64,000 bases of DNA from an uncultured Pseudomonadales bacterium (GCA_964513845.1 CAZENT010000001.1:149278-213277); one strand, 5' to 3'. Shown: positions 26,311-64,000, numbered from the stretch's first letter. Made by a program: numbers and translations. The notes: generated from the sequence alone by a model not told the origin.

Positions 26311-26391
26311 TTGTGTCTATGATAGCAGATTGTGTCAAGTTGGCGAACAACTACAAATTTTTTATCACTAGGGTAAAAATATGTTTAAGTG

Positions 26392-32426: not shown

Positions 32427-33347
32427 TTAGTTGCCAGTAAAAATATTCCAAGTGGAAGTTTTCCATTTATTACCTTCTCTGACAAACGATATTGATGTCA
32501 GTTTTCCATTAGGATCATTTTCTATATAAAATTTAATATCAAATTTAACTGGTTCAGTGTTGTAGAAATCTTCCTCTTCTTTCGCAGAATGGTATTCATT
32601 CAAAACTTCGAATGTTTTATATTGCGTATAGACAGTTCCTGGCCAGTCAATATTTTCAACTTGTTTTTGGGCAGATACTGTTAAAAATGACATTGCCTTA
32701 TTTCGATCATTGTTGATAATGCTTTCTGAGTAACCCTGAATAGCCTCACGTAATTGTGTCTTGTTGCTTGGTTGCGGAGATAAACTTATGTCTGCAAATT
32801 TGAAGGTGGAAATAAATTGAGTAAAGGTGGGTAAATCTAAACTCCCAACACCACAACCCGGTCCAAGACATTGAGAATAAGCAACCAACAAGTATTTGTT
32901 GTTGGATAAATTAAATTCTCTTTGCGTTTCAAACGTATTTCCTTTTGGCTTTCCTTCAAAGATTGTTCCTGTAACAATCTCCCCTAATTTAAGTGTAAAT
33001 TGAAATTCCTTGTCCTTTGATCTTGGATCAACCTCAAGTGTCCACATGTTGGGGTACTTGAAACTATAGCCATAGGTTGTATTTGTATAAGTTTTCCAGT
33101 CCGCAGTTACGTCGATGGTGGGGGTGGGAGTTTCAAGGCCAACAGAGGTAATGGCAACAGTTGGAGTTGGGGTAGCGATGGCTGTTGAACTTTCTGTCAT
33201 GGGGACAAATCGAGAGGCAAGAACACCAATGAGGATACCAAAAAGAATTAAGGCAATAACAATTAAAAAGGTTTTTAGAAAGCCTGATTTTTTAGACGAT
33301 AAGGGTGCTGCTGGTGCGGGAGGAAGTAATGGGGGTTGAGACTCCAT
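32427..33347 (-). CDS. Membrane-anchored protein with a Pro/Thr-rich linker and a C-terminal globular domain (hypothetical)
   Basis: TM helix FLKTFLIVIALILFGILIGVLA and a TPTPT linker. The track start at 33701 overlaps the upstream ATPase gene by 410 nt in another frame, so the start is uncertain; M119 at 33347 is one candidate. Confidence 0.4.
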   Translation of the reverse strand: MESQPPLLPPAPAAPLSSKKSGFLKTFLIVIALILFGILIGVLASRFVPMTESSTAIATPTPTVAITSVGLETPTPTIDVTADWKTYTNTTYGYSFKYPNMWTLEVDPRSKDKEFQFTLKLGEIVTGTIFEGKPKGNTFETQREFNLSNNKYLLVAYSQCLGPGCGVGSLDLPTFTQFISTFKFADISLSPQPSNKTQLREAIQGYSESIINNDRNKAMSFLTVSAQKQVENIDWPGTVYTQYKTFEVLNEYHSAKEEEDFYNTEPVKFDIKFYIENDPNGKLTSISFVREGNKWKTSTWNIFTGN

Positions 33348-36300
33348 CTGTGTCGTTACTGGGGTTGTCGTTTCCAGTTGGGATATTTCCTCCAGGGGCG
33401 GGTTCATCTTTGATTGTGGCAGGAAGACTGGCTCCGGGTTCATCGACTGGGGCTGGGAGGGAAACTCCTCTATCGGGGATAGAGAGGGATGAGTCTGGTC
33501 GGCTGACCAGTTCTCCGGCGGAGTGATCGTCTGGTTTGATGGTGCGGGAGGAAGAGTCAGATCCTGTGTTTGAAGAGAATCTTGAGGAAGACTGTCTTGA
33601 GGATCCGGTGTCTGATTTGGGTTCATTTTGGTTGTGGTGATTAATAACTTTTGTTTCTGATGCAAGAATGCCCTTTGTTTTAAGAATCTCAAGGGCAGCA
33701 CTGGTAATTCTTAACTTGCCTCCCTGGGACGAGGATTTGGCTAGCTCAAGAGCCTCAGTGAAACTTACCCATTTGAAATCATTATATTCTTCATCTGAAG
33801 GGAACTTCAAACTACTTGATGAGGAGGTGGCATAGAGAAAATAATAGGTTTTCCCCTTCATGGTGACAGAAACACCGGAGTCGGTTTTTAGATCTTTAAG
33901 TCCTTGTTTGTCTGGTGGAAACTCAATACGATCGACAGACACAAAAGTAGGCTTGAAACTGGTTTGTTTGACAAAATCTTGTCCTAGCTCTTCTGTCATT
34001 TCGCGTTTGAAAGCGTCCGTAAGAGTCTCTTTGTTGTCTACTCCCCCTTGAGGAAGCTGCCATAGATTGTGAATTTTGTGATAAACGAAAAGAATTTTGC
34101 CGGAATTTATGAAACAACCAACTACGCTGGGACGGAAACCTTCTTGACGGTCTTTGTCTAGATCTTCCACGTTTGGCTCTTTTGAGGCGTTGGTCGGAGA
34201 TTGCCGCGTCGCTTCGCTTCTCGCAATGACGGGAGTTGGTTGAGATACTGTTGAAGCGGGTTGATTGCTTGGCGAGGATTGCCGCGTCGGAGTATCTTCT
34301 CTTTTCTGAGATGGACTGGTGTGCGATGCCGTGGTTGAGGCAGATAATGAGGGGACCTGAGAAGGGTTTTGAGTACGAGTATCAGTTTGTGCAGGAAATG
34401 ATTGAGGCGTATACGGTTTGGGGGATGATTGTTGAGGGCGATATGGCGTAGCTTGGGAATACGATCGATCTTCACCCCGAGGTCCTTGAGGCTTAGATGA
34501 TGATCGATAGTCTTGTTTGGGAGGAGGTGCGCTGGGAGAATAGACTGAGGCTTGCGTCATGTCGAGAGCTTCGGTTTTGCGGTAGTACTGCTCTTCGCTC
34601 ATGGCGATAATTTTTTCGCGATTGCCATTTTTGTTTTCTGGGAGAGGGAGGGTGGTGGCAGCAAAAGGATTAGAAATGGAAGCGTTGACGGAAATTTTGA
34701 CGATGATTTGATATCTAGCTAACCCAACAAGATCATCTTGGGTATAAAAATTACCGAGCTCGTTCATCAGACGATTAGCATCGGCGGCGCCAACAACAAA
34801 ACTAATGAGGGTACCGGCGTTTCCAAAAATAGCATCTTGAATTTCTATGGGAAGCTGAGCGGTGTACTGGTTAGCAAGAATCAGGTTCAAACGATACTTA
34901 CGAGCCTCGGAGAGAATTTTGATAAAGGATGTGGTGGCAAAGTTCTGGAACTCATCAACATAAAGAAAGAAGTCTTTTCTTTCGCTTTCGGCCATGTTGG
35001 CACGATTCATGGCAGCAATTTGAATTTGAGAGATAAACATGGCACCCAGAAGAGCGGCGTTGTCTTCTCCAATTTTGCCCTGAGGTAGATTGAGGATGAT
35101 GATTTTGCCGCTATTCATCAAGTCTTCAAAATCAACCGTGGACTTGGGATGACTAATGATGTCACGAATTGTGGGTGAAGTGATGAATTGACCAACTTTG
35201 TTTAGAATAGGAGAAATAGCTTCGGACTGGAATTTTTCGGAATATTTGTCGTATTCATCGTGCCAGAAATTGTGAAGCACTGGATCTTGAACTGCGGCAA
35301 GATATTCTTCGCGCCAAGGTTTGTTGGTGAGAAGTCTGGGAACATCTAGAAGAGTGGCACCAGGCTTGGCTACCAAAGTGAGAAGGGTGTTTCTGAGAAT
35401 GTATTCCAAACGAGGACCCCAGGAGTTGCCGTAGAGTTTACTGAAAATGGACACGATACCGGAAGCAACTAGCTCGGCATAGGCTTGGTTTTTGACGTAA
35501 AGAGGGTTCAGGTGAAATGATTTACCAACAACAGAAGGATCAAGATAAGCAACGTCGTTAATTCTGTCTGCTGGGATGTAATCAAGAAGATGTTCGGCCG
35601 TGTCGCCGTGAGGATCAACGAGAGCCATGCCCTCTCCATGACGAATGTCACTAATAGCCATGTTGGCCAAAAGAGTGGATTTACCGGTACCGGATTTACC
35701 CAAAACGTAAACGTGACGACGGCGATCTTCCCCTTTTTTCATGCCAAAAGAAACCATGCGATTTTTGTATTCGGTTTTGGCAAAGAAATTAATTTCGTGC
35801 TTTTCTTCTTCAGACATGTCTTCGGCAATGGGAAGATTGGCTGGCGGTTCTCCACGCAGAGTTTTACCCCAAGCAATACCTTTGATGTTGGCAAGATTAA
35901 AGCCCGGAAGATGATAGATGGCGGCAATTTCGGCGTAGTTTAGATATTGATATTGATTTGAGTAACGAGCGGAACGATCAATGATCATTTCACGAAGTTT
36001 TTTGAGTGAGGTAGGGCTAACAACCTTGAGTCTAAAACTGTTGCCTTCAGACAAAGAATAGGTACCAAAGGCGGCCGAAATTTGAGAGATAAGCTGATTT
36101 GAAGAGGTAACGCTTGAGGAAACAGCAACCAGACGAATATCACAACCAAAAGCTTGATAAACGAGTTTCTTTTCAATAAAAGGCTTTTGGGTACTGGGCT
36201 GAGCCTTTACGCCCTCAGCGACAGGAGCGGGTTCTAATGACTTTCGAAGGGCTTTTTGCCAGTTTACTGGAGCAGCAAATAGACAGATTTGGATGACTGC

Positions 36301-36735
36301 AGCTTGGCCAGATGGAATCCTGGAAAGGCTACCCAAAATAGCGGTCATTTGATCAACTTTCTCGTCTTCAGTAACATTTATAGGAAGAGATGAGGGTGCA
36401 GAAAGAACCAACTGACCCATCTGAGGCTCTCCATGATTAAGCCAGTCGGCAAGATAATCCTTCATGGGGGTAATGAGAGCTGTGGGGTACTGAGCGGCAA
36501 TTTGAGAACGAACTAGATGCTCCAGACGCTCTGGACAAGCGATTACAAAATAGGTTGTTTGGTTGAGATTAGCTATCTCAAGAGTAATAGTTTCGTAGGT
36601 ATTGAGGAGCCTATCCATAAAACTAGCCTTGAGAGAAGACTTAATTGAAGCTAAAAACTCGACAAAAGCAGCTTGGCCCGTGAGCGAGTCTTTGGCAGGA
36701 CGAATCTGCAGTACCGAATATTTGGGCAAGGCCAT
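33292..36735 (-). CDS. FtsK/HerA/VirD4-superfamily P-loop ATPase (DUF87/TrwB-like) fused via a ~130-aa disordered linker to a canonical NUDIX hydrolase domain
   Basis: Walker A VYVLGKSGTGKSTLL plus ALVDPHGD; Walker B FFLYVDEFQNFAT; coupling-protein-like ARKYRLNLILANQYTAQL. S/P/Q/T-rich linker. Nudix box GGVDNKETLTDAFKREMTEELGQ (G-x5-E-x7-REUxEExGU). S-rich C-terminal tail. Confidence 0.75.
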   Translation of the reverse strand: MALPKYSVLQIRPAKDSLTGQAAFVEFLASIKSSLKASFMDRLLNTYETITLEIANLNQTTYFVIACPERLEHLVRSQIAAQYPTALITPMKDYLADWLNHGEPQMGQLVLSAPSSLPINVTEDEKVDQMTAILGSLSRIPSGQAAVIQICLFAAPVNWQKALRKSLEPAPVAEGVKAQPSTQKPFIEKKLVYQAFGCDIRLVAVSSSVTSSNQLISQISAAFGTYSLSEGNSFRLKVVSPTSLKKLREMIIDRSARYSNQYQYLNYAEIAAIYHLPGFNLANIKGIAWGKTLRGEPPANLPIAEDMSEEEKHEINFFAKTEYKNRMVSFGMKKGEDRRRHVYVLGKSGTGKSTLLANMAISDIRHGEGMALVDPHGDTAEHLLDYIPADRINDVAYLDPSVVGKSFHLNPLYVKNQAYAELVASGIVSIFSKLYGNSWGPRLEYILRNTLLTLVAKPGATLLDVPRLLTNKPWREEYLAAVQDPVLHNFWHDEYDKYSEKFQSEAISPILNKVGQFITSPTIRDIISHPKSTVDFEDLMNSGKIIILNLPQGKIGEDNAALLGAMFISQIQIAAMNRANMAESERKDFFLYVDEFQNFATTSFIKILSEARKYRLNLILANQYTAQLPIEIQDAIFGNAGTLISFVVGAADANRLMNELGNFYTQDDLVGLARYQIIVKISVNASISNPFAATTLPLPENKNGNREKIIAMSEEQYYRKTEALDMTQASVYSPSAPPPKQDYRSSSKPQGPRGEDRSYSQATPYRPQQSSPKPYTPQSFPAQTDTRTQNPSQVPSLSASTTASHTSPSQKREDTPTRQSSPSNQPASTVSQPTPVIARSEATRQSPTNASKEPNVEDLDKDRQEGFRPSVVGCFINSGKILFVYHKIHNLWQLPQGGVDNKETLTDAFKREMTEELGQDFVKQTSFKPTFVSVDRIEFPPDKQGLKDLKTDSGVSVTMKGKTYYFLYATSSSSSLKFPSDEEYNDFKWVSFTEALELAKSSSQGGKLRITSAALEILKTKGILASETKVINHHNQNEPKSDTGSSRQSSSRFSSNTGSDSSSRTIKPDDHSAGELVSRPDSSLSIPDRGVSLPAPVDEPGASLPATIKDEPAPGGNIPTGNDNPSNDTDGVSTPITSSRTSSTLIV

Positions 36736-37377: not shown

Positions 37378-38184
37378 TTATATCGTCTTTTCAGGTGAAG
37401 TTGGGGTTGGCATGGGTGGAAGAGGTGTGTCTGAGGCTGGTTGGACTTCGGTGACTGGCTCGGGGGCGGCTTTTTTGGTGAAGGAGTAATAAAGATAGAG
37501 TGCTTGTTTGATAAGGCGAACCACCATGGTGAATGCGAGGGAGGTGATGATGTAGACTTTTTTGCCTGCCGGAAGGAACATAAAAATGACAAAACAGATG
37601 ATAGGAAAAATGATAACCAGAGAAACGAAGTCTTTTTGGCTCGGCTTGACTGGAGAAAAATATAGGTGCATGGCTTCGTTGGCGGCAATCATTAAACTCT
37701 GAATGATATTCAGGGAGTTGTTGGTGCGAGATAGGTCATAAATCCCAAGGAACATAAGATCGATGGGGGTTTGAATCTTAGGCATAAATTTATAGATCAG
37801 ATGAAGATCGGCACCCTCAAGACCGGTGGTAAAAATACGATAGAGCATGACGATAACGAGAGCCTGGAAAATAACGTTAAAAATCTCCGACAAAATAGCT
37901 CCCGGTTTTTGACGCATGATTCGGTTTGTCTCCGACTTGAGCTTGATGGGATCAGAGGCGAGCTCAGTTTTAAGTTGTTTGATTTGTTGGGAAATTTTGT
38001 ATTTGTCTTCGTCGGAGCGATCACCGATGGCATCGATGGGTAGAAAAATAATACGAACAGCTACGGCGAACAAAATCATGGCGATACCCATGTCCGGATT
38101 AGGAAAAATCTGACCAACTAACCAGTAAATACCAACGAGTAGATTAAAAAATGGTTGATAAAAATAAGTGGTAAAAATATCCAT
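37378..38184 (-). CDS. YidC/Oxa1-family membrane insertase (second, divergent paralog)
   Basis: GIAMILFAVAVRIIFLPI (the conserved TM2 R) and five TMs with a C-terminal Pro-rich tail. The canonical yidC is at 52106-52858. Confidence 0.6.
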   Translation of the reverse strand: MDIFTTYFYQPFFNLLVGIYWLVGQIFPNPDMGIAMILFAVAVRIIFLPIDAIGDRSDEDKYKISQQIKQLKTELASDPIKLKSETNRIMRQKPGAILSEIFNVIFQALVIVMLYRIFTTGLEGADLHLIYKFMPKIQTPIDLMFLGIYDLSRTNNSLNIIQSLMIAANEAMHLYFSPVKPSQKDFVSLVIIFPIICFVIFMFLPAGKKVYIITSLAFTMVVRLIKQALYLYYSFTKKAAPEPVTEVQPASDTPLPPMPTPTSPEKTI

Positions 38185-52105: not shown

Positions 52106-52858
52106 TTATTTTCCGGTCACACGAGTGACAAAAAGACGAGCTTTTTTGTAAGCCGGAATAAGACCACCCCAACCGGAGAAGAAGTATTGCTGAACGAGAG
52201 AGAAGACAGTAGAAATTACCCAGAAAAGAACAAGGCCAGATTGAAAGTTGAGGGAGATAATGACCGTCATGAGAGGCATCATGTAGATCATTTGCTGCTG
52301 CATACTGGAAGCCATTTCGAGGCTGTTTTCTTCTTTTTTCTTTTCTTCTTTCTTTTTGGGATTTTTTACTTCAGACACAATGCCTGATTGCATCATAAGA
52401 GAGAAAACGAGCTGAGAAACACCAGCGAGAATGGGCATGATGTAGGTTCGGTCTGGTTTGGTGAGATCGAGATACAGGAAATAGGGGTTCATGTTGGTTC
52501 CACCAACTGATGATTGCCCGAGGAAAAACATAAACACCTGGTAGAGAGAGATGAGGATGATGATTTGAAAAATTTGAGGAAGACAACCGGCGGCAGGATT
52601 AATACCTTTTTCTTTGTAGAGTGCGATCTGGGCTTGTTGAAGTGCAGTTTTGTCGGTGTGTTTGGCTTTAAGTCTGTCTAGCTCTGGTTTGAGATCCTGC
52701 ATTTTTTTGGCAGAGCGAAGGGAGGGGATAACTAATGGAAGAAGAATTACTTTGGTGATAAGCGTGATGGCGATAATGGAAAGACCAAGGTTGCCACCAA
52801 AGAGTTGGTAGAAAAACAAGAGAGCTTGGTAAAGGATTCCGTTTATTGGTGCGAGCAT
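52106..52858 (-). CDS. yidC: Membrane protein insertase YidC (short Gram-positive/CPR type)
   Basis: IITKVILLPLVIPSLRSAKKMQ and GCLPQIFQIIILISLY signatures. Confidence 0.9.
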   Translation of the reverse strand: MLAPINGILYQALLFFYQLFGGNLGLSIIAITLITKVILLPLVIPSLRSAKKMQDLKPELDRLKAKHTDKTALQQAQIALYKEKGINPAAGCLPQIFQIIILISLYQVFMFFLGQSSVGGTNMNPYFLYLDLTKPDRTYIMPILAGVSQLVFSLMMQSGIVSEVKNPKKKEEKKKEENSLEMASSMQQQMIYMMPLMTVIISLNFQSGLVLFWVISTVFSLVQQYFFSGWGGLIPAYKKARLFVTRVTGK

Positions 52859-53132: not shown

Positions 53133-53987
53133 CTAATTGGATAATTTTTTTTGATTACTGCTTGATTTGATTTTTCTAAGGAAATTTTGTGAGGTAACGA
53201 TACTTTTACCAATTTCTTTCTCTAATTTTTCTCGTGCTCCACCGGCGATTTTACCTCCCCGATGAGATATTTTTTTGTTTTCTTCAAAACCATGAGGGTG
53301 TTCTGTTTTGGTGATTTCTGTTGTCGAAGCTTCTCCCAACATCGAGAAGAGGAGTTCAAGATCTGTCATGTGATCTCGAAGGTTTTGTCTTTCCAGTCCC
53401 TTTATCTTTTTGTGTTCAGAGGGAGATATGCCAAAGGCTGCCTTGGAGATTTCTGCTGTCAGAATGGCGTAATCCAGTTGCTGTCTGACTCCATGGATTT
53501 GCCATTGTTCAGTTAGATCTTCACGAATAACTATAGATCGCATTCTTTTTTCGATCCAACCATCTGGATATCCCTTGGCTTTGTAGATAGCTCTGACTCT
53601 TTTTTGGGCAAGCTCCGGATCTTCAATTTCTTGAATTCTTTCATATCCCACCTTTGCTAACCAACGCTTGAATGGTTCTGCTTTGGGAGAGGGGATGGAC
53701 TGAATAATACGAAAAACGCTCTCTGTGTTTGCACAGTCTGTATCGTATTTTTTTCCATCTGATGACGCTAATTTCAGTTGTCTACAAATTGTAGACAACT
53801 CAACTCCATCGCTTGACTTAACCCTAGTTTTCATGGCGTTCCAATACACCCTTGGTTTTTTACTATTCGTTAACGCCTCGATAACATCAACAACTGAAAA
53901 CCACCATTCGTTTTTGAAGATGATTTTTCTAATCTCCTTTTTTTGGAAAATCGCTATCCTTGTTAACTCCTCAAATTTGTTGGACAT
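53133..53987 (-). CDS. Bro-N domain protein, DinD-like (DNA-damage-inducible protein D family)
   Basis: N-terminal Bro-N-like NEWWFSVVDVIEALTNSKKPRVYW and a DinD-like central/C-terminal region. It is inserted between rnpA and yidD. Confidence 0.5.
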   Translation of the reverse strand: MSNKFEELTRIAIFQKKEIRKIIFKNEWWFSVVDVIEALTNSKKPRVYWNAMKTRVKSSDGVELSTICRQLKLASSDGKKYDTDCANTESVFRIIQSIPSPKAEPFKRWLAKVGYERIQEIEDPELAQKRVRAIYKAKGYPDGWIEKRMRSIVIREDLTEQWQIHGVRQQLDYAILTAEISKAAFGISPSEHKKIKGLERQNLRDHMTDLELLFSMLGEASTTEITKTEHPHGFEENKKISHRGGKIAGGAREKLEKEIGKSIVTSQNFLRKIKSSSNQKKLSN

Positions 53988-54018: not shown

Positions 54019-54360
54019 TCAAGAGGATTTTAGAAGGTTGGAAAGGTCTTTTTTAAGAATTTGAAAATCGGTTTCATGAACCTGGCGTTTGGGAACGATG
54101 AGATAGTCTTTTGGAGGAATAGATGAGAGAGTATTTTCTATGATGGCAGAAGTGACTCTTTTTATCTTATTGCGATCAACGGCAAGGGAGGCAGTTTTTT
54201 TGGAGAGAAGGATGGCCAGACGAGGAGATTGAGCTTTTTTATCTTCGGGAGTTTCGGCAACTACAAGAGTAAAGAATTTGCCAAAGACGGTTTTACCGGT
54301 TTGGTTTAAACGTTCTCTATCGAAACGGAGTGATAAACGATGACTCTTTGGTAGAGCCAT
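54019..54360 (-). CDS. rnpA: Ribonuclease P protein component
   Basis: MALPKSHRLSLRFDRERL and the RNR-like KRVTSAI region. Confidence 0.8.
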   Translation of the reverse strand: MALPKSHRLSLRFDRERLNQTGKTVFGKFFTLVVAETPEDKKAQSPRLAILLSKKTASLAVDRNKIKRVTSAIIENTLSSIPPKDYLIVPKRQVHETDFQILKKDLSNLLKSS

Positions 54361-54363
54361 AGA

Positions 54364-54501
54364 TTAAACGGATAATTTAGTCCTGCCTTTGGCGCGACGG
54401 CGTTTGATGACGTTGCGGCCATCATGGGAGGCCATTTTAATACGGAAACCGTGGGTACGGACGCGTTTGATTTTGTGTGGCTGGTAGACTCTTTTTGGCA
54501 T
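54364..54501 (-). CDS. rpmH: 50S ribosomal protein L34 (45 aa; below ORF-track size cutoff)
   Basis: Manual translation gives [45 protein letters not shown], the L34 consensus. Confidence 0.85.
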
Positions 54502-54718
54502 GGTTTTATTTTATCATTGATGAGCGGAGCTTATTATACCGCATCTTTGTTGATTGCCACGATTAAAATGGATCTCTATGAGTATTGAAGAACATTCTGC
54601 GGAGATCGGGCATGAAGATACTTTGTGATGTCTTTTTGATGGGTATTTTGGGGGTTGTAGATTGTGGATAACATGGTAAAACTGAACTACACCTGCCCGG
54701 TTATTAATATTTTACGTT

Positions 54719-56101: not shown

Positions 56102-56407
56102 ATATCCACATCTTATCCCCAGGACGTGGATAACTTTCGAAAAAGTGGATTAGTAGGGGGATAAGCACAAGGAGTGTTGATAAAGATACAAAGTTATCCA
56201 GAAAATTATCAACAGAAAATGTTAGTTGTTCTGAAAATAATAGTCACAACGGTTGAATAAATGATTAAAAAGTATGGATATAACAAACGAAGATAAATTA
56301 ACAACAAGAGTAATAGGCAAGAGCCACGCTTATAATCAACAAATCAACACGACCTATTACTATCATTACTATTTTTTAGATTAATATAATAATTAGAAGG
56401 AAATTCT
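56102..56407. other. oriC: cluster of at least 7 DnaA-box-like 9-mers followed by an AT-rich DNA-unwinding element
   Basis: ATATCCACA, TTATCCCCA, GTGGATAAC, TGTTGATAA, TTATCCAGA, TTATCAACA and others within 56102-56214. AT-rich stretch 56340-56400. A perfect TGTGGATAA box also lies upstream of dnaA at 54664-54672. Confidence 0.75.
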
Positions 56408-57517
56408 ATGAAAATAATTGTTCAATCAGGAGAGCTTAAAAAATATCTGGGAATAGTAAGCAGGGGAGTGAGTAGCAGGCCTCAGTTACCAATATTGTCG
56501 GGAGTTCTTCTAAAAGCGGAAAATGATGAGGTGAGTTTAGTGGCAACCGATTTGGAAGTGAGTTTTTGGTTGAGTCTTTCGGCGAAGGTAGAAGAAGAGG
56601 GTGAAGTGGTGGTTCCGGCAAAACTATTTTCTGAGCTGGTTTCAGGTTTTCCTTCCGGCAACGTAATGATAACTGTGGAAAAACACGTGGTAAAAATTGA
56701 AGTTGATGGAATTGTATCGGAAATAGTGGGCCAGGGAGCTGAAGACTTCCCCAGTATCCCCAGAGCAAGTAAGGCTCAAGTAGTTCTTCGAAGCGGAGAC
56801 TTTAGACAAAAAGTGGATAGAGTGTGTGTGAGTGCGGCCAGAGACGACACTCGACCAGTGTTGACTGGAGTACTTTGGGAAATTAATGAAGAAAAAGTGT
56901 CTTTGGTGGCGACTGACGGATATCGATTGTCGGTGGATAAGTTGACTTTGTCAAAAACAGAACTAGAAAAAGAAACGAGATTAATTTTACCTGCAAGATC
57001 TTTGCAAGAAATTTCAAAAATGTTGGGTGAAACCGGTGTTGATGTTTTTTCTTTGGAGTTTAGTAAGGAAAATCAACAAGTCATTTTTAAAGTGGGAGAG
57101 ATTGAGGTAACTTCGAGATTGATTGCAGGCGAGTTCCCGCCTTATCAACAGATTATGCCGAATACTTACTCGTCGAGAGCTGTCTTTGGTAAAGCAGAGA
57201 TACTAGAAGGCGTCAAAAGAGCTAATTTGTTTGCTCGAGATAATGCCAATATTATTAAGTTGCAAATGGAAAAAGATGGTGTGGTGGTTCGAGCTGAGAG
57301 TTCTCAGATTGGTACAAGTGTAAGTAAGGTAGAGGCAGTGGTTGAGGGTGAAGAATTAACAGTGGCGTTTAACGCAAGATATTTACTGGATTATCTGGCC
57401 AGCAGTACTTCGGAAAAAGTAGTATGGGAAACAGAGGGAGAACTGAAACCCAGTGTTTTTCGTAACGAAGATGAAGAAACTTGGGTGCAGGTGGTAATGC
57501 CTGTTAGGGTGCAGTAA
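56408..57517 (+). CDS. dnaN: DNA polymerase III beta sliding clamp
   Basis: Three-domain clamp (369 aa) in the standard position after dnaA. Confidence 0.9.
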   Translation: MKIIVQSGELKKYLGIVSRGVSSRPQLPILSGVLLKAENDEVSLVATDLEVSFWLSLSAKVEEEGEVVVPAKLFSELVSGFPSGNVMITVEKHVVKIEVDGIVSEIVGQGAEDFPSIPRASKAQVVLRSGDFRQKVDRVCVSAARDDTRPVLTGVLWEINEEKVSLVATDGYRLSVDKLTLSKTELEKETRLILPARSLQEISKMLGETGVDVFSLEFSKENQQVIFKVGEIEVTSRLIAGEFPPYQQIMPNTYSSRAVFGKAEILEGVKRANLFARDNANIIKLQMEKDGVVVRAESSQIGTSVSKVEAVVEGEELTVAFNARYLLDYLASSTSEKVVWETEGELKPSVFRNEDEETWVQVVMPVRVQ

Positions 57518-57971
57518 TCCAGTCGACTCTTACAAATTCAAGATCTTTTTCTGAAATATCGAAATAGTTTAGCCATGAAAATAAGTTTTCTCTGTTTTCT
57601 TTTACAGGAGTTTCGATTGTAATTGTGTATGTGGCGTTTGAATAATCGTATTCAATTTGGAATCCTGTTTCGATTATCGGAGAATTTTTACGAATAAAAG
57701 ATAAATTTTTGTCGATTCTAGCTTTGTCGGTTTTACTATAATCTTCTAAATTTTTTTTAAATTGTGTATTCCATTCTTCTGTTGACTCAACTGGGTTTAT
57801 CGGAGGTAAGACAATTGAAGCGCTTGGAGTTGATATTTCCGGAATGCTTTTTGTTATTTTTTTTGATAATGAAATAGAGTCAATGATTTGAATTATGAGG
57901 AAAAGAATAACAATCAATAATATTCCTCCCAGTATTTGATATTTTTTTGAAATATTTATTTTCATAGACAT
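57504..57971 (-). CDS. Bitopic membrane protein (N-terminal TM plus periplasmic domain), candidate VirB8/PrgL-like T4SS component
   Basis: TM ILGGILLIVILFLIIQII. Sits last in the T4SS-like gene array. No motif-level support. Confidence 0.35.
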   Translation of the reverse strand: MSMKINISKKYQILGGILLIVILFLIIQIIDSISLSKKITKSIPEISTPSASIVLPPINPVESTEEWNTQFKKNLEDYSKTDKARIDKNLSFIRKNSPIIETGFQIEYDYSNATYTITIETPVKENRENLFSWLNYFDISEKDLEFVRVDWITAP

Positions 57972-57976
57972 TTATA

Positions 57977-60721
57977 TTATGGAACAACTGCCCACATTCG
58001 GAATAGTTTGTATGATGTATCAAGAGTGTGAATATAGTTTTCACCCATCCATGGATCCATAGTGGTTATTTGATTTCCTTCGTGGGCGACGATGACCAGA
58101 AGATGCCCACACCATCCTCCACCACAAGCCATATCACCTGTTGCTAAAATCATGCCACAGTTCGAGAGAACGCTGTCAGCTTCGGCAAGATCTGATCCGA
58201 TATCGGTAACTGAAAGTCCACTTTCGGAAAGAATTTTTAAAGAGTTAAAATTGTCTGACCCACAAGAAACGTAAGGTATTTTGCCATCATAGACACGTGG
58301 TGGAGAATTGCTATCCCAGTAAACATATCCTCCGATTGAGTGTTGCCAATGCCAGACATCAGTAACATTTGAAGTTACACCAAAGCCGTTTAAAATCATG
58401 GTCATAGAAGCACTACTACAACCTGATGACCCAATTCGACAACTGCCAGCTGGTGAACAGTTTTTACAAAAAACGCCTGCCCATTCGGGGTCTCTTTGTG
58501 AAATAAAAATTCCTTCGGTATTAGCACAACCTGTGGCAGAGGTACGAGTTTTTGGAATTGATTCGAGTTGAACAAGAGTAGAAATAAGGGGGGCGACAAC
58601 AATGGAAGAAACATAAAAGAAGAAACCTACAAGTACGCCTAAAACAAGAGTGCCCACAGCAGAACTGGCGGCGGTTGTTGTGGCGGAACCGATTCCGGAA
58701 AAAAATTTGGATACTGCTGAAACAGCACCAACAACAGGAACGATGAGAACATCTCTAGTTTTAATTTTTTCACCATAGACAGAAACAGCTACTTTTTGAA
58801 CGACATTGACAGTTCCTTTTATGACAGAGAGAATAATGTCTCCAACAAGCCAGATTATAGCAGGAATAGCACCAACTCCTGTTGCTGCAAGACCAAATTT
58901 TGCACCAATACTGACTGCCAGTTTGGATAGAGCTTTCCCAAGACCTTTTTTTGTAAGTTCGGTGGCGATTTTCGTTCCGGCTTTAATGGCTGCTTTTCCT
59001 GCCGTAGAAGAAAGAATTTTTTTAACAACATAGTCACCTACTTTTTTGCCAACCCACGATCTAACGGCACCAATAGGATCTTCAACTATTCGAAAAATAT
59101 TGCCAAAAACAACGGGGAATTTGTCAGATATTTTTGAGAAAAATTTTGTGACAGGTTGAGTTAATTTTGTCCAACCAGTGATAATTTTATTAATATTTTT
59201 TCCTATAGGAGTGTTTGCGAATTTTCCAAGCACAACAGGCACTTTGGTGATTTCTTTTCCTAAAGGTGAGTTGGCAATTCTTCTGATCTGAGTGCCGGCT
59301 GCATCAAATAAATCCTTATTGGATTTGAAAAGTTTACCAAGTTCTGATTCGGGATTGTTTTTTGCGTAGAGACGGGCTTTGGCAAGTAAGGTTGGGGTGA
59401 GCCCTTTGCCGTATAAAAGGATAGCTTGGGGAGAAAGATCGGGATCTTGAGTTTTGGAATTAGTTACTAAAGCAGCGGACATCTCGGCTTGATAGCCGGC
59501 GTGAGCATTTAGCTCTCCAGGCATGTTGTGACGAATCGCTGCTTCTAGAAGCGCTGCGTCGTCGAGAGAAGAAAATAGGCGCGGCTGAACACCATTGTTT
59601 TCGAGATTGGAATGAATGGAGATAAAGACATTGTTGGCGAGCTCAATTCGATCGAGAGTGTCAGGGTCTTTTGATAGTCTTGTTTGACTGTCTTTATTAA
59701 ATTCTTGAAAAGCGACAGCTTGATTGTCAACAAAGACATCGAGTTGTTTGGGAAGATTTTCTATTTTTTGAGCAAGTTTTTGATTTGTTTCGGTGAGAGT
59801 TTTAATCTGAATAAGTTTGATTTCCAGATCTACGACTATATTTTGTTTGACTTCTTCTGCGTATTTTAAGAGAATAATTTCGTTTTCAGCAATTTGAGCA
59901 GTTAGGGTGGCTGCTTGTGTGGTTTGAGTATTGACCGCGTCGTAGACAGAGTGAACAAAATTTGAAGAAATTTTAGATAGATTTTTTTGATCTTCGGCTG
60001 ATAAATCTGAGATGTTAATCAATAGTGAGGCGGATTGAATGGCAACATCAATATTGGTAACACAAATGGAGTTTAGCTCCACAGCCTCTTCGATGATTCT
60101 GTTTTGCGCTTCTACAGATAACTTTAAAAAGCTTTCATGAGTAAGAGCAACTTCTCTCACTGCTGCGTAAGAAGCAGCTAAAGCAGTTTTTTTTGAGTCT
60201 GATTTTGGAGAACCAAGCGAGATTAATACTTTATCTGCGTCTTGAAACTTTTCTCCTCTGGCTTGTCTTTTTTGTTTGTTAAGAAGAGCTTTTTGCTTTA
60301 TCTTTGAATGGGCAATAGCTATTTTGACCTGTTCGGCAACCGATCTCTGAGAGTTTGATTTTATCTCTTCGCTTTCGAGAAGGGCTTTGTTTTTCTCGTA
60401 CTCAGCAACTAAAGACTCGAGTTCTGGGGGAATGGAGGCTTCGGGTTTTGTTTCCTCTTCTTCGTTAAGAGAATTGAGTTTAATTATTAGCTTTTCGATT
60501 TCACCTGAGCCGGCAATATATTTTTGAAAAGAGTAGACGTCGATTATTCTAGGATCAATACGATCATCAGGGAAAAATTTAGGCCAGTATCCTTCATACA
60601 ACGAATAAGCTTTGTTTAGAATTTTTAAAATTCTAGAATTTAGTTTGTCTTCTGAAACAGCCAAATACGAAAGAGAGTTCTTTAGATCCTTAATGTCTTG
60701 CGAATAATCATTTTTTGCCAT
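57977..60721 (-). CDS. T4SS-associated membrane protein with a C-terminal papain-like cysteine peptidase domain (C39-like/CHAP-like); PrgK/TcpG-type cell-wall hydrolase analog
   Basis: Coiled-coil N-domain (~560 aa), amphipathic Lys-rich repeats, 2 or more TMs near residues 600-700, and a C-terminal domain with candidate catalytic Cys (GSSGCSSASMTMIL) and His (GGWCGHLLVIVAHEG). Confidence 0.5.
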   Translation of the reverse strand: MAKNDYSQDIKDLKNSLSYLAVSEDKLNSRILKILNKAYSLYEGYWPKFFPDDRIDPRIIDVYSFQKYIAGSGEIEKLIIKLNSLNEEEETKPEASIPPELESLVAEYEKNKALLESEEIKSNSQRSVAEQVKIAIAHSKIKQKALLNKQKRQARGEKFQDADKVLISLGSPKSDSKKTALAASYAAVREVALTHESFLKLSVEAQNRIIEEAVELNSICVTNIDVAIQSASLLINISDLSAEDQKNLSKISSNFVHSVYDAVNTQTTQAATLTAQIAENEIILLKYAEEVKQNIVVDLEIKLIQIKTLTETNQKLAQKIENLPKQLDVFVDNQAVAFQEFNKDSQTRLSKDPDTLDRIELANNVFISIHSNLENNGVQPRLFSSLDDAALLEAAIRHNMPGELNAHAGYQAEMSAALVTNSKTQDPDLSPQAILLYGKGLTPTLLAKARLYAKNNPESELGKLFKSNKDLFDAAGTQIRRIANSPLGKEITKVPVVLGKFANTPIGKNINKIITGWTKLTQPVTKFFSKISDKFPVVFGNIFRIVEDPIGAVRSWVGKKVGDYVVKKILSSTAGKAAIKAGTKIATELTKKGLGKALSKLAVSIGAKFGLAATGVGAIPAIIWLVGDIILSVIKGTVNVVQKVAVSVYGEKIKTRDVLIVPVVGAVSAVSKFFSGIGSATTTAASSAVGTLVLGVLVGFFFYVSSIVVAPLISTLVQLESIPKTRTSATGCANTEGIFISQRDPEWAGVFCKNCSPAGSCRIGSSGCSSASMTMILNGFGVTSNVTDVWHWQHSIGGYVYWDSNSPPRVYDGKIPYVSCGSDNFNSLKILSESGLSVTDIGSDLAEADSVLSNCGMILATGDMACGGGWCGHLLVIVAHEGNQITTMDPWMGENYIHTLDTSYKLFRMWAVVP

Positions 60722-60726
60722 ATCAG

Positions 60727-62574
60727 TTACAAAGATTCTGCTTGTTGTTTGCGTGCTTCGAGTACTTCTGAAGGCTTGGTAGTGGAAAGAGCGTGTTCGT
60801 CTGGGGAGGAGATTACTTTGATGGCAACATGATTTTGTCCGGCAAAGAAAATACCTTCTCCGACACCGGCTGAAACTAAAAGTTGTTTTTCTCCTTGGGA
60901 GAGATAGAAAACTTCGGCTATTTGATTGATAGCGGCTGAAGATTGTTTGAGAAGGAATTTGAGGGCAGAGTTGGTAATGATGGCTTTACCATAGGGAGAG
61001 GCTAAAAAGTCGTCAACGTTTTGAGAGATGACAGTAACACCAAGATAGTATTTACGGGCACGCTTGACAAAACCTTGGAGAATCTTGGCAGAGTCTTCGT
61101 AGCGCATAAGATACCAGGCCTCATCTACAATGAGCATGCGTTTACGAAGATTTTTGCGTATTTCTGTCCAGACAAAGTCAAGAATCATAAACATAACGAT
61201 AGGACGAATCTCATCAGCAAGATCGCGCATGGAAAAAACTGTAATAGGAGCATCGATATCGATATTTGATTGCTGATCGAAAGTGCCTTTGATACCGCCC
61301 ATGACGTATCGCTCTAGTCTGGCAGCTAGTACCTTGGCTGTTTGATCTTCCATACCGATGATGGCACGGTAAAGATCTTCCATACGAGGAGGTTCTTGGG
61401 TGTGTGTGGCAGGATCATCAGTGATGTTTTTCTGACGATAGGTGAGAACGAGGGCGCGATTCATGGTGGCCTCTTCCATGGGGGACATGGCACCAATCAT
61501 GATTTTAAGTAAGGAAATGAGGAAAAGATATTTGTAGCCCATTTCATCTTCAGTGCTTTCTAAAGGCCTCGCAATTTGAAACGGATTAATTTTGTGGGGA
61601 GAGTTGGCAGAAAAAGAAATGTAGTTTCCGCCTACGGCTTTGGTGACCATTTCATATTCGTTTTCCGGATCGAGAATGATGATTTGGGTGTCAAACATTA
61701 AAGAGCGAAGAATTTCTAGCTTAACGGCATAGGACTTACCGGCACCGGCTGTGGCCAGAACGAGCATGTTGGCGTTTTCGAGAGAGAAACGATCGAAAAT
61801 AATGAGAGAGTCGTTGTGAGCATTGATTCCGTAAAGAATACCTTGGTTGTCTGAAAGTTCGGAGCTAGTGAAGGGAAAGGTGGTGGATAGAGCAGTTGTG
61901 TCCATGTTTCTTGTGATCATCAGCTTGTCTTTGCAGTATGGAAGAGTAGTTTTGAAGGCATCCTCCATAGAGAGTGAGGCGACTTTGCTGATAATGAGCA
62001 GAGAAGCGAGCATGCTTTGAACCTGAGAAGTGACAGTGTTGAGCTCTTTTTCGGACTCGGCAGAGATACTGATGTAAAGAGAAAACTGGAAAAAGCGTTC
62101 GGCACCTTTGACTAGCTGTGCCTGAAGTGTTTTAGCGTCTTCTAAAGCCGCTTCGGTGGCGGCTTGGGGAATACGACCTCTTTCGATGTCAGTGTTAATC
62201 TCGGCTTCCATTTCGGCCAGGCGACGCCTGAGGCTATCAAGAGTGTCTTTGGAGTCACTAGGATAGATGTACATGGAGATATCAAGAGAGTGATTGAAGT
62301 TTACGAGAGGAGCAAGCCAGTTGGCGGAAACATAACGAGGGTAACCAGTGACAAAAAGAGTGCGAATGTAGTTGTCGTCAATCTTGATAAAAGAAAAATC
62401 AACTTCGATGGAGGAGGGAGCTAAAACATCTTGAATTGAAGCGGCGTTGGTAGTGTCTTTGATGGCCGAAAGAGGAGCTCTGGGCTTTTCTTCAGTTGAT
62501 GTGACAGGAGCCGCCGAGACAACGGGTGGTGTTTCGGTCTTTTTGGCACCAAGAGAAAAGAGATTTAACCCCAT
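60727..62574 (-). CDS. virB4: VirB4/TrbE/CagE-family T4SS ATPase (C-terminal about three quarters)
   Basis: CagE_TrbE_VirB region (YIRTLFVTGYPRYV), Walker A LATAGAGKSY, Walker B MLIVDEAWYLM, and DPENEYEM. Confidence 0.8.
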   Translation of the reverse strand: MGLNLFSLGAKKTETPPVVSAAPVTSTEEKPRAPLSAIKDTTNAASIQDVLAPSSIEVDFSFIKIDDNYIRTLFVTGYPRYVSANWLAPLVNFNHSLDISMYIYPSDSKDTLDSLRRRLAEMEAEINTDIERGRIPQAATEAALEDAKTLQAQLVKGAERFFQFSLYISISAESEKELNTVTSQVQSMLASLLIISKVASLSMEDAFKTTLPYCKDKLMITRNMDTTALSTTFPFTSSELSDNQGILYGINAHNDSLIIFDRFSLENANMLVLATAGAGKSYAVKLEILRSLMFDTQIIILDPENEYEMVTKAVGGNYISFSANSPHKINPFQIARPLESTEDEMGYKYLFLISLLKIMIGAMSPMEEATMNRALVLTYRQKNITDDPATHTQEPPRMEDLYRAIIGMEDQTAKVLAARLERYVMGGIKGTFDQQSNIDIDAPITVFSMRDLADEIRPIVMFMILDFVWTEIRKNLRKRMLIVDEAWYLMRYEDSAKILQGFVKRARKYYLGVTVISQNVDDFLASPYGKAIITNSALKFLLKQSSAAINQIAEVFYLSQGEKQLLVSAGVGEGIFFAGQNHVAIKVISSPDEHALSTTKPSEVLEARKQQAESL

Positions 62575-62597
62575 GATTAAGTATAACCGAAAAGGGG

Positions 62598-63254
62598 TTA
62601 TTTAGGGATTAAAGAAGGGTTGATTTGAGCTGGGCTGAGTGTGGTTGAGCCTTGGTTGTAGATAGTGTAGAAAAAAGTAACAAGATCGCTGGTTGTTAGT
62701 TGGGAAGCTTTGAGCCCTAAACGAGCAAACTGTCGAATTAAATGATCGCGACGAGGATAGAGAACAGTAGAAGCTTTTTCTTCGATATACACCAGGTCAA
62801 AAGGAGGTTTTTGAGGAGCTTTGGCAAAAGGATTGAAGTTGGATTTGGACAGGCCAAGTTCGATAGCTGAAAAAGGAATAATCACATAAAACTTTTTTTC
62901 CAAAACACGGTTTTCTTTGACAAGGGATTTGACAAACTGGCGATAAGCCAGAAGCTGTTCCTTAATTTTTTGGGAAGAGACAGACTGAATACGGGTATCG
63001 ATGAGATTGAGGTAGTCGGAAATATTTTTTCTCTGGGAACGGATAAGGATTTGAACAGGGAAAGAAAGAGAGTTTAGAAGGCCAGCGTAGGCATAAATCG
63101 TAGCATCTTGTTCCTCTTCTGAGAGAAGATTGAAGTTGATGGCGGTGGTTTTGAGAACCAAGGCGGCTGAACCATCTTTGAGAAAAACGAGATGATCTTT
63201 GATGGCATAGATATCGAGATGTTCTTGGGTAGAGGCTTTGATGTTGTCGGGCAT
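62598..63254 (-). CDS. VirB4 N-terminal domain encoded as a separate ORF (split VirB4), or a frameshifted pseudogene fragment
   Basis: IKDHLVFLKDGSAALVLKTTAINFNLLSEEEQDATIYAYAGLLNSLSFPVQILIRSQRK matches the VirB4 extreme N-terminal region. It ends 23 nt before the VirB4 ATPase ORF, in a different frame. Confidence 0.5.
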   Translation of the reverse strand: MPDNIKASTQEHLDIYAIKDHLVFLKDGSAALVLKTTAINFNLLSEEEQDATIYAYAGLLNSLSFPVQILIRSQRKNISDYLNLIDTRIQSVSSQKIKEQLLAYRQFVKSLVKENRVLEKKFYVIIPFSAIELGLSKSNFNPFAKAPQKPPFDLVYIEEKASTVLYPRRDHLIRQFARLGLKASQLTTSDLVTFFYTIYNQGSTTLSPAQINPSLIPK

Positions 63255-63259
63255 TTTCT

Positions 63260-64000
63260 TTATTGAGCTTGGATTTTAAGAGGTTTGACAATGTCTCCGG
63301 TAAGTTCGAGAGAGTAAGGAGCAAAGGAAAAGCCTTCTTTTTCGGCGAGAATTTGGAAAAGACCAGAGTCAAGAGGCCTGGCGAACATAAACTGCCCAAG
63401 TTTGTTGCTCTTGGTGGCACGAAGAGTGAGATTGTCTTTTTTGATTTCCACCATAACGCTGTCGAGGATATGTCCTGAAGGGGTGAGAGTCAAACCAACA
63501 AGAGTGTTGGGCGTGGTAGGAGTAAAAGGAATGGGGAGGTTGGTGGTGGGAGCCGGAGCTTGGGCAACAGGGGCTGTTTGAATAGCTGGAGCCGGCTCGG
63601 GTGGGGCAATTGGAGTAGTAATGGGTTCTGGTGAAGGAGTTGGTTGAGTAGCCGAAGGAATTTCTTGGGGTGGAGTTTGAGCCGGAGCTTGGGCAACAGG
63701 GGCTGTTTGAATAGCTGGAGCAGCGGGCTGGTCCGGAGTAACCGTTTTTGAGGCTTCGGTAATCTCGATACGAGCATTGGTGACGGGCTGAGCGATTGCT
63801 AGATTATTTTCTTTTGTGGGGACGGCAGTTTCGGTGCTTGATGGGCTGGCGACAGTTCTTTTCCAAGAATATTGGGTGGGTGAGTAGATAGATTTGATGA
63901 AAGCGATTAGCCAGACATCAAGAGAGCGACCTTGAACGGGAACGAAGGCTATGCCAACACCAAGTAGAAGGAAGGCAAAGACGATGGGGTATTTGAAGAA
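63260..64000 (-). CDS. Partial CDS (5' end off-window): N-terminal TM segment, Pro/Ala/Thr-rich linker with a 129-nt tandem repeat, and a C-terminal beta-sandwich-like domain
   Basis: Manual translation of the minus-strand frame continuous with ORF 63260-63493 is open to the window edge: ...FFKYPIVFAFLLGVGIAFVPVQGRSLDVWLIAF ... PAAPAIQTAPVAQAPA ... EPAPAIQTAPVAQAPAPTTNLPIPFTPTTPNTLVG-LTLTPSGHILDSV.... The track ORF 63490-63777 is the off-frame L/P-rich reading of the same repeat. Confidence 0.6.
   Translation of the reverse strand, partial: FFKYPIVFAFLLLGVGIAFVPVQGRSLDVWLIAFIKSIYSPTQYSWKRTVASPSSTETAVPTKENNLAIAQPVTNARIEITEASKTVTPDQPAAPAIQTAPVAQAPAQTPPQEIPSATQPTPSPEPITTPIAPPEPAPAIQTAPVAQAPAPTTNLPIPFTPTTPNTLVGLTLTPSGHILDSVMVEIKKDNLTLRATKSNKLGQFMFARPLDSGLFQILAEKEGFSFAPYSLELTGDIVKPLKIQAQ
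63550..63721. repeat. Two copies of an identical 43-nt core (129-nt period) encoding the APAIQTAPVAQAPA linker repeat
   Basis: GAGCCGGAGCTTGGGCAACAGGGGCTGTTTGAATAGCTGGAGC at 63550-63592 and 63679-63721. Confidence 0.8.

Follow-up and report, generated by a model that had tools for sequence, protein, structure and literature searches.

Type IV secretion systems (T4SSs) are a frequent feature of the Patescibacteria. In a survey of 3,035 Patescibacteria genomes, VirB4 was found in 2,417 (Quinonero-Coronel et al., 2025, Microb Genom 11:001409, PMC12102498). The Patescibacteria VirB4 proteins formed a monophyletic clade nested in MPF-FATA, with TrsD as the most frequent companion. Homologues of PrgI/VirB3 were also present, together with arrays of VirB2-like pilin genes that are abundant in Microgenomatia. 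Relaxases were almost absent, VirD4-like genes were located far from virB4, and dnaN, dnaA, rnpA and rpmH were the commonest neighbours of virB4 in Paceibacteria and Microgenomatia. Here we describe a T4SS gene cluster that lies next to dnaN and dnaA at the end of a stretch of DNA of 64,000 nucleotides (nt; CAZENT010000001.1:149278-213277). We refer to this stretch as the window and count positions from its first letter. An earlier reading of its sequence, the original prediction, had proposed a T4SS resembling the minimal modules of Gram-positive type, possibly an apparatus for host interaction or DNA uptake in an organism from the candidate phyla radiation (CPR) with a reduced genome.

The T4SS of Southlakia epibionticum ML1 (SEML1_0006-0019) is essential for growth on the host, as determined by transposon sequencing (Tn-seq) (Wang et al., 2023, Cell, PMC10633639; reviewed in PMC12857230). 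Like the cluster in the window, it is chromosomal and Gram-positive-like, with pilin genes within the cluster, and no recognisable relaxase or coupling protein has been reported for it (PMC10633639). Peptidase and lysozyme genes are found downstream of its virB4, and the low locus-tag numbers suggest a site near the genome start. However, Southlakia belongs to a different class, the Saccharimonadia, and the hydrolase domain in our cluster is fused to a large scaffold with cytoplasmic and transmembrane (TM) parts.

Several conjugation systems of Gram-positive bacteria share parts of this organization. The Prg/Pcf system of the Enterococcus plasmid pCF10 has PrgI (VirB3-like), PrgJ (VirB4), PrgK (a cell-wall hydrolase) and PrgL (bitopic) in the same order as in the window, and in the staphylococcal pGO1 type, as here, a TrsD-like protein has a gene of its own upstream of VirB4. 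In contrast to our cluster, pCF10, pGO1/pSK41 (Trs) and pIP501 (Tra) are plasmid-borne and have a relaxase, an oriT, an adjacent type IV coupling protein, surface adhesins and no pilins. PrgK and TraG use SLT, LytM and CHAP domains, whereas C39-like, M23 or Amidase_2 domains are found on a different scaffold in the family described here. The CTn2-type elements of Clostridioides difficile (CD1110 VirB4, CD1115 VirD4) provide the best curated matches for the VirB4 in the window and, weakly, for an ATPase of 1147 amino acids (aa) encoded elsewhere in it. Unlike our cluster, these elements are mobile and carry an integrase and a relaxase, and the N-terminal part of VirB4 is encoded apart here, as TrsD.

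The cluster agrees with the systems in the survey of Patescibacteria in most respects: a separate TrsD and a PrgI/VirB3 homologue by virB4, pilin arrays, no relaxase, a distant VirD4-like ATPase and proximity to dnaA and dnaN. The comparison with T4SS loci of the CPR that the original prediction had proposed therefore ends in a match to published Patescibacteria systems (PMC12102498). Two features differ. VirB6 was scarce in Microgenomatia in the survey, whereas a conserved polytopic candidate of 570-640 aa is present here; and 22.6% of the Microgenomatia VirB3 homologues were associated with virB4 there, whereas the PrgI-like gene is always adjacent in our loci. The T4SS and its dnaA/dnaN position are already described in papers of 2023 to 2025. 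Newer than the known system are four observations: a hydrolase domain that is swapped among orthologues of the scaffold, NUDIX or S1 tails on orthologues of the coupling-type ATPase, an intein in VirB4 of some relatives, and GC skew that does not flip at the presumed replication origin (oriC). Neither the swappable hydrolase scaffold nor the NUDIX and S1 tails are mentioned in the survey, and the word 'Nudix' does not occur in it (PMC12102498). A literature search gave two papers on T4SSs of Patescibacteria, and neither contains this word.

Results

A chromosomal T4SS of Collierbacteria

Our analysis indicates that the region is very probably the promoter-distal half of a chromosomal, vertically inherited T4SS of Collierbacteria, which probably belongs to the 'Patescibacteria clade' descended from MPF-FATA, the conjugation machinery of monoderms. 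Five co-directional open reading frames (ORFs) on the minus strand fill the last 6.5 kb of the window (Table 1), separated by gaps of 5, 23, 5 and 5 nt, in order. This five-gene array had been described from the sequence before, and all five ORFs were found as described. Their order, PrgI-TrsD-VirB4-hydrolase-bitopic, bears out the proposed resemblance to Gram-positive-type modules. The last gene of the array and dnaN are convergent and their 3' ends overlap by 14 nt, as had also been noted. Gene callers place the start of this last gene at an ATG at 57965, which gives a protein of 153 aa. We looked for internal promoters and terminators in the operon and found no convincing site; promoter-like sequences numbered 19 versus 12.0 ± 4.5 in shuffled sequences, and terminator-like sequences 10 versus 6.2 ± 2.1.

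The assignment of VirB4 carries the identification of the system. In our searches, Pfam matches were judged by the gathering score and NCBIfam matches by the curated cut-off. VirB4 reaches 373.7 bits against NCBIfam NF045971 (conju_CD1110), above the cut-off of 325, and the match spans positions 183-734 of the 752 in the profile. It also matches Pfam P-loop_TraG (E 1e-28), AAA_10 and CagE_TrbE_VirB. The translation contains a Walker A motif, ATAGAGKS, and a Walker B motif, MLIVDE, at residue 480. The top profiles are VirB4 families of integrative and conjugative elements from Firmicutes and Mollicutes.

VirB4 in the window lacks the first ~180 positions of the CD1110 profile, and the neighbouring 218-aa protein matches that N-terminal part (CD1110 profile positions 25-134). 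This protein also matches VirB4_plasma (E 6e-8, profile positions 127-284), NF041427 TrsD/TraD weakly (E 3.6e-4) and, in precomputed annotation, PF26593 (TraC-like). In every relative showing it, the protein has an ORF of its own, in another frame than virB4, so that the arrangement is that of TrsD and does not result from a frameshift in virB4. The 218-aa ORF had been read as a VirB4 N-domain, and the weak but consistent profile matches identify it as a TrsD-type homologue.

The first gene of the array runs off the window, and its C-terminal 246 aa have no Pfam match on their own. Of the two TM helices they include one, and this part of the protein also has a linker rich in Pro and Ala and, at the C-terminus, a domain rich in beta structure, in agreement with the membrane protein with Pro/Ala repeats seen originally. 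A full-length orthologue of 294 aa (97% nucleotide identity) places it in the PrgI family, with a match to PF12666 (E 1.9e-7, 32 bits versus a gathering score of 27). This orthologue is on L001, a Logan contig that we used as a proxy for the DNA beyond base 64000; L001 and the window are 96-97% identical over the 13 kb they have in common. The linker contains an exact 43-nt direct repeat (63550-63592 and 63679-63721, 129 nt apart). Its length differs among relatives, whose proteins range from 264 to 357 aa, suggesting repeat-driven length variation.

The closest VirB4 genes come from Candidatus Collierbacteria (78-96% identity among species-representative genomes), followed by those of Shapirobacteria and Woesebacteria (53-59%), and every close homologue belongs to a genome of Microgenomatia. 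The window is therefore assigned to Microgenomatia (OP11) of the Patescibacteria. VirB4 is 100% identical in L001 and another contig, L002, and TrsD is also identical in L001. The order PrgI-TrsD-VirB4-large TM protein-bitopic-dnaN-dnaA-rnpA recurs in essentially every locus that is long enough (at least 35 loci), and the position of the T4SS next to dnaN and dnaA is fixed in more than 30 species-level genomes from at least three candidate orders. The gene order is kept among more than 30 relatives at species level, at VirB4 identities as low as 55%.

We scanned about 40 larger ORFs of the window for domains. None is a relaxase, an integrase or a VirB6-like protein, as predicted for the relaxase and VirB6. 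The L001 extension likewise has no relaxase or integrase, and no relaxase was found in 15 large proteins embedded in the clusters of relatives. The only tRNA gene in the window (tRNA-Cys at 26391) is 31 kb from the cluster; no tRNA gene lies within the cluster or in eight related 22-kb loci. No att-like border was seen in our view, which covers the dnaN side of the cluster and not its far (pilin) border. The reported absence of integrative-element borders thus stands for tRNA genes near the cluster, integrases and att-like repeats. Comparison of window and L001 orthologues gave dN/dS values of 0.00-0.02 for VirB4, TrsD, dnaA and dnaN, which are under strong purifying selection. Taken together, the fixed position next to dnaN, the lack of a relaxase, an integrase and a nearby tRNA gene, and purifying selection exclude a recently integrated conjugative element. 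Judging from gene order and content, the cluster is a vertically inherited chromosomal system and not an integrated conjugative element.

Some Collierbacteria relatives (L040:1970-5611, L041, L042, L043, L045 and L047) have VirB4 proteins of 1100-1220 aa that contain an in-frame intein near the Walker A motif (Intein_splicing, LAGLIDADG_3 and Hom_end; residues 322-859 in L040). VirB4 in the window has no intein.

Table 1. Coordinates of the T4SS genes and of other features discussed in the text
Feature	Position in window	Strand	Remarks
PrgI/VirB3-like protein, partial (246 aa in window)	coding 63263-64000, stop 63260-62	minus	runs off window end
TrsD-like protein, 218 aa	62598-63254	minus	soluble VirB4 N-domain homologue, separate gene
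VirB4 ATPase, 615 aa	60727-62574	minus	T4SS motor; NF045971 above cut-off
Hydrolase scaffold, 914 aa	57977-60721	minus	TM protein with papain-fold peptidase
Bitopic protein, 155 aa	57504-57971	minus	last operon gene
dnaN (DNA polymerase III beta clamp)	56408-57517	plus	DNA_pol3_beta domains in orthologue, 99% aa identity
dnaA-dnaN spacer, candidate oriC/DnaA-binding region	56102-56407		six DnaA-box-like 9-mers
dnaA	54719-56101	plus
rpmH	about 54372-54503	minus	upstream of dnaA
rnpA	54019-54360	minus	upstream of dnaA
VirD4/TrwB-type ATPase-NUDIX, 1147 aa	33292-36735	minus	DUF87 + NUDIX

A scaffold with an exchangeable hydrolase domain

The 914-aa protein had been described as a TM protein with a peptidase domain. 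In the AlphaFold model, residues 1-490 form a cytoplasmic all-helical domain (pLDDT about 90), followed by 3-4 TM helices at residues about 609-710. Residues about 760-914 form a Cys-rich papain-fold (C39-like) peptidase domain that is predicted to be extracellular. The sole meaningful fold match of this domain in the PDB is Staphopain C (Foldseek probability 1.0, TM-score normalized to the target 0.51). Among eight orthologues with this domain, Cys768, His873 and Asp889 are invariant, and so are eight further cysteines, which fit an extracellular location. The conserved part of the family is about 730 aa long and comprises the helical cytoplasmic domain and the TM helices.

The C-terminal domain varies within the family. 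In a set of 38 orthologues (P0001-P0038), it is M23 in 23, C39-like in 6 and Amidase_2 in 2. All three are folds that cleave cell walls, and their alternation on one scaffold is the basis for regarding the protein as a hydrolase. The earlier description of a TM peptidase-domain protein is upheld by the papain fold, the invariant Cys768, His873 and Asp889, and the M23 or Amidase_2 domains that take its place in orthologues. The protein has no SLT or CHAP match, meaning that it is not a member of the VirB1/PrgK/TraG family. It could plausibly act like the VirB1/PrgK hydrolases even though it lies outside that family. Among 1.8 billion representatives, the family makes up about 90 clusters at 50% identity and is thus a small one.

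Between the window and L001, the scaffold gene is a mosaic in which blocks of near-zero synonymous divergence (dS) alternate with blocks of dS near 1. The latter are the N-terminus, codons 361-480 and the C-terminal peptidase. This mosaic indicates that modules have been exchanged by recombination. Pervasive positive selection was considered and rejected in favor of mosaic recombination: dN/dS of the 914-aa protein is 0.27, raised compared to 0.02 for VirB4 but below 1. The variability between close strains hints that the target of the hydrolase is the wall of the host rather than the cell's own.

The slot before dnaN is occupied by a bitopic protein in all of 35 loci. In the window, this protein starts with a TM helix and has a small alpha/beta domain outside the cell. 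The ectodomain occurs in at least three seemingly unrelated forms, one of ~150 aa with an alpha/beta fold and two kinds of ~340 aa. In a handful of loci that we read, the short form tends to occur with the C39-type scaffold and a long form with the M23-type scaffold.

The upstream half of the cluster in a close relative

The original prediction had placed VirB6-like and pilin-like genes beyond base 64000, and both are present in L001, the VirB6 as a candidate. Outward of the PrgI-like gene, L001 encodes in turn a soluble protein of 844 aa, a polytopic one of 575 aa, a bitopic one of 172 aa and a secreted one of 840 aa, followed by three or more VirB2-like pilins. The same gene set recurs in other Collierbacteria, and the polytopic protein is also found in Shapirobacteria- and Woesebacteria-type loci. 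Three adjacent pilin genes are called as PF18895. The two complete ones, with 37 and 42 bits, exceed the gathering score of 26.6, and the third, which is partial, is a weak match. Their orthologues in other Collierbacteria are 51-82% identical.

The 575-aa protein (L001:4065-5792) has a signal peptide, an extracellular domain of ~200 aa and 8-9 TM helices. Polytopic proteins of 570-640 aa occupy a conserved position, 2-4 kb upstream, across the Collierbacteria-, Shapirobacteria- and Woesebacteria-type loci. Based on its topology and position, we consider the 575-aa protein a VirB6 candidate. It is thus also a candidate for the VirB6 that was found to be scarce in Microgenomatia (PMC12102498).

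We also considered the secreted 840-aa protein as an SLT/VirB1 homologue and rejected this assignment, since it has no Pfam, NCBIfam or PDB match. Its invariant Glu686 and a YNGGGN motif resemble those of lytic transglycosylases by eye only, without a profile or PDB match. The 153-aa bitopic protein was rejected as a paralogue of the 172-aa bitopic protein of L001 (BLASTP E 1.1).

The 844-aa protein (L001:5870-8404, minus strand) is divergently oriented and has no known domain. Equivalents are present in L003, L004, L005, L010, L012, L016, L028, L031 and L036. In these loci, the space from the VirB6 candidate to the PrgI-like gene holds, on the opposite strand, one or two genes for soluble proteins of large size (380-960 aa). 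They have no signal peptide or Pfam domain and evolve very fast (15-40% identity), and their alignment is too divergent for use as a profile. A search of 15 such proteins for a relaxase or any other known domain found none. These embedded proteins may have a regulatory role, or they may be candidates for cargo or effectors.

A VirD4/TrwB-type ATPase with a NUDIX or S1 tail

The 1147-aa ATPase-NUDIX protein, which had been singled out as coupling-protein-like, is encoded 20.8 kb from the near end of the cluster (57504) and about 24 kb from virB4. Its Walker A motif is at residue 346 and its Walker B motif at residue 590. An intact Nudix box (GGVDNKETLTDAFKREMTEELG) is found at residue 897, in a NUDIX domain whose best matches in the PDB are Ap4A hydrolase and RppH. 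The protein matches DUF87 above the gathering score and the TrwB P-loop in a PDB search. Its VirD4-type matches are under the cut-offs (conju_CD1115 VirD4-like, E 3e-10, 39.6 bits versus a cut-off of 250; SXT_TraD, 2e-8).

We aligned the window protein with 24 relatives that are 49-85% identical (n=25). TrwB_AAD_bind is matched by 23 of these proteins, TraG-D_C by 21 and T4SS-DNA_transf by 6; the window protein matches none of the three. Since 23/25 carry TrwB_AAD_bind and 21/25 TraG-D_C, the family is of the VirD4/TrwB type. The window protein has no TM anchor (no 19-residue segment with hydropathy above 1.37), and a soluble domain, DUF8128, makes up its first 320 aa. The label of a coupling-protein-like ATPase thus holds for the family, but not for the window protein by itself, which is TM-less and has VirD4-type scores under the cut-offs. 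This protein, a VirD4-type ATPase that lacks TM segments and ends in a NUDIX domain, could be a partner of the T4SS.

The C-terminal tail is a NUDIX domain in 15 of the 25 proteins and an S1 RNA-binding domain in 5. NUDIX tails are found in Collierbacteria and S1 tails in other relatives, in the same conserved slot. We compared this slot in the window (33292-36735), in L052 (8001-11174) and in the P0179 contig. It contains genes for a solute-binding protein, an unknown protein, a YidC-like protein in some loci, an SPFH/Band-7 protein, the ATPase, GroES/EL, PGK and GAPDH. The YidC-like gene is adjacent to the ATPase gene in the window and in the S1-type contig, but absent from the NUDIX-type loci L052 and L053. 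The tails raise the idea that the T4SS or the coupling ATPase handles RNA or nucleotides, and not relaxase-bound DNA or proteins, and would provide a route for the uptake of host RNA; we consider this unlikely.

The window encodes two YidC/60KD_IMP paralogues. One (52106-52858, E 1.5e-45) is at the canonical rnpA-yidD-yidC place, and the other, a divergent one (37378-38184, E 3e-15), neighbours the SPFH gene and the gene of the coupling-type ATPase.

The dnaA-dnaN region

The cluster had been described as flanking oriC. Of the 22 DnaA-box-like 9-mers in the window (at most one mismatch allowed), 6 fall within 113 bp (56102-56214), with an AT-rich stretch next to them. The spacer between dnaA and dnaN is 73% A+T in L001. 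Across 34 related loci, DnaA boxes occur at 11.9 per kb in the spacer versus 0.39 per kb elsewhere, a 30-fold enrichment. However, the GC skew of the plus strand is positive in 32 of 32 2-kb bins and does not change sign at the DnaA-box cluster. At third codon positions, the skew is +0.24 in plus-strand genes and +0.40 in minus-strand genes, on both sides of dnaA-dnaN. The placement at oriC is therefore supported by the DnaA boxes and the AT-rich stretch, but not by a GC-skew flip. In these genomes, the origin as defined by skew may lie elsewhere than at dnaA. Alternatively, their strand asymmetry may not follow the usual bidirectional pattern.

Among the related loci L001-L049, about 30, mostly from Collierbacteria, have the same uniform skew sign as the window over the T4SS side, dnaN and dnaA, and 1-6 kb past dnaA. 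In one of them, L031, the skew is close to zero and weakly changes sign. A uniform skew of the opposite sign is seen in three loci of Shapirobacteria type (L025, L034 and L044), whose gene order is the same.

Other genes of the window

The remainder of the scanned ORFs are core housekeeping genes. They encode TIM, GAPDH, PGK, GroEL, MetRS, LeuRS, TsaD, L25, UvrD, an AddA-like protein, RmuC and YidC, as well as cell-envelope proteins. A gene for a 284-aa protein with Bro-N, a domain typical of phages and viruses, lies inside the otherwise universal rnpA-yidD-yidC cluster (53133-53987, minus strand). It is present in L001, L012, L036 and L040 and absent from L003 and L005.

Discussion

Established T4SS biology, applied to the gene content of the cluster, suggests how the apparatus may work. 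VirB4 hexamers would dock on the membrane via the PrgI/VirB3-like protein and TrsD, and would power the assembly, by way of the polytopic protein, of a channel and a VirB2-like pilus. On the outside of the membrane, the 914-aa protein would present a domain that cuts peptidoglycan and opens the cell's own wall or that of the host bacterium at the contact site. Of these steps, the hydrolase is the one that our data support best. The apparatus would mediate contact-dependent exchange of macromolecules with the host bacterium. By analogy with the Tn-seq results on Southlakia epibionticum, it is probably needed for epibiotic growth.

Several points weigh against this interpretation. The function of the T4SS is carried over from experiments on another class, the Saccharimonadia. 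The upstream half of the cluster is known from the relative L001 and not from the window. The 575-aa polytopic protein has no match to the VirB6, TrbL or PrgH profiles in Pfam and NCBIfam, or to PDB chains. No VirB8/NTF2-like (PrgL-type) fold was found in the bitopic protein, unlike in pCF10-type systems. Finally, the scaffold's own match to C39_2 (E 0.0025) is under the Pfam gathering score.

We considered three other explanations for the cluster. The T4SS could be a conduit for host RNA or nucleotides, in which the TM-less ATPase serves as receptor or motor in the cytoplasm and the NUDIX or S1 domain handles the 5' ends of RNA that comes in. We give this explanation a low probability. It draws on the NUDIX (15/25) or S1 (5/25) tails of orthologous ATPases in the same slot, and on the intact Nudix box of a domain related to Ap4A hydrolase and RppH. 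It is also topical, because a 2026 preprint (10.64898/2026.06.21.733656) reports that a cultured Patescibacterium takes up host RNA by a route left unresolved, with tubes resembling T4SS pili at the interface. However, the ATPase gene is not adjacent to the T4SS genes, and nothing that we found links the two physically. NUDIX domains have many substrates, and the NUDIX protein Pif is tied to DNA conjugation in actinomycete elements. Moreover, the t4cp homologue of Southlakia is not essential (PMC12102498).

A machine for DNA import, used for transformation or nucleotide scavenging, is quite improbable. The models for such a machine are Ced of the archaeal Sulfolobales and ComB of Helicobacter, which are T4SS-derived, relaxase-free importers of nucleic acids. 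VirB4 and the 1147-aa ATPase have weak matches to CedB (E 5e-15) and CedD, no relaxase was found, and Patescibacteria are established to lack de novo nucleotide synthesis (PMC10633639), all of which would be consistent with import. However, the Ced matches are far under the cut-off (55 bits versus 700). The likeness to Ced and ComB consists of this sub-threshold ATPase similarity alone, and no CedA-like or ComB-specific components were found. Southlakia needs comEC as well as type IV pili for competence and stays viable when comEC is deleted, whereas its T4SS is essential (PMC12857230). Nothing in the window ties the cluster to comEC, comF or dprA.

An integrated conjugative element or its decayed remnant, inserted by dnaN and moving its own DNA, would suit the CD1110 family of a Clostridioides conjugative transposon as the best curated VirB4 match, the PrgI/J/K/L-like gene order and the presence of a VirD4-type ATPase gene in the genome, but it is highly improbable given a dnaN/dnaA position kept in more than 30 species-level genomes down to VirB4 identities of 53-59%, the lack of a relaxase or integrase in the scanned ORFs and the L001 extension and of tRNA genes in the eight 22-kb loci, the purifying selection on VirB4 and TrsD, and a VirD4-like gene that has a conserved slot of its own among housekeeping genes, some 21 kb away from the near end of the cluster.

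We therefore favor a chromosomal, vertically inherited T4SS. The original prediction had viewed the cluster as a host-interaction or DNA-uptake apparatus of a CPR organism with a reduced genome and not a conjugative element. The dnaN/dnaA synteny and the lack of a relaxase, an integrase and att borders argue for a chromosomal apparatus that is not conjugative and that may serve host interaction.

The uniform skew means that the published 'origin-proximal gene dosage' rationale for the position of these genes needs checking. The exchange of wall-cutting domains between strains may reflect adaptation to the chemistry of the host wall. Few machines have been demonstrated to be essential to Patescibacteria in their life as epibionts, and the T4SS is among them. 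The window provides a clean example of this system from Microgenomatia, and not a new kind of system, to which our analysis adds a candidate VirB6 and ATPase tails related to RNA or nucleotides.

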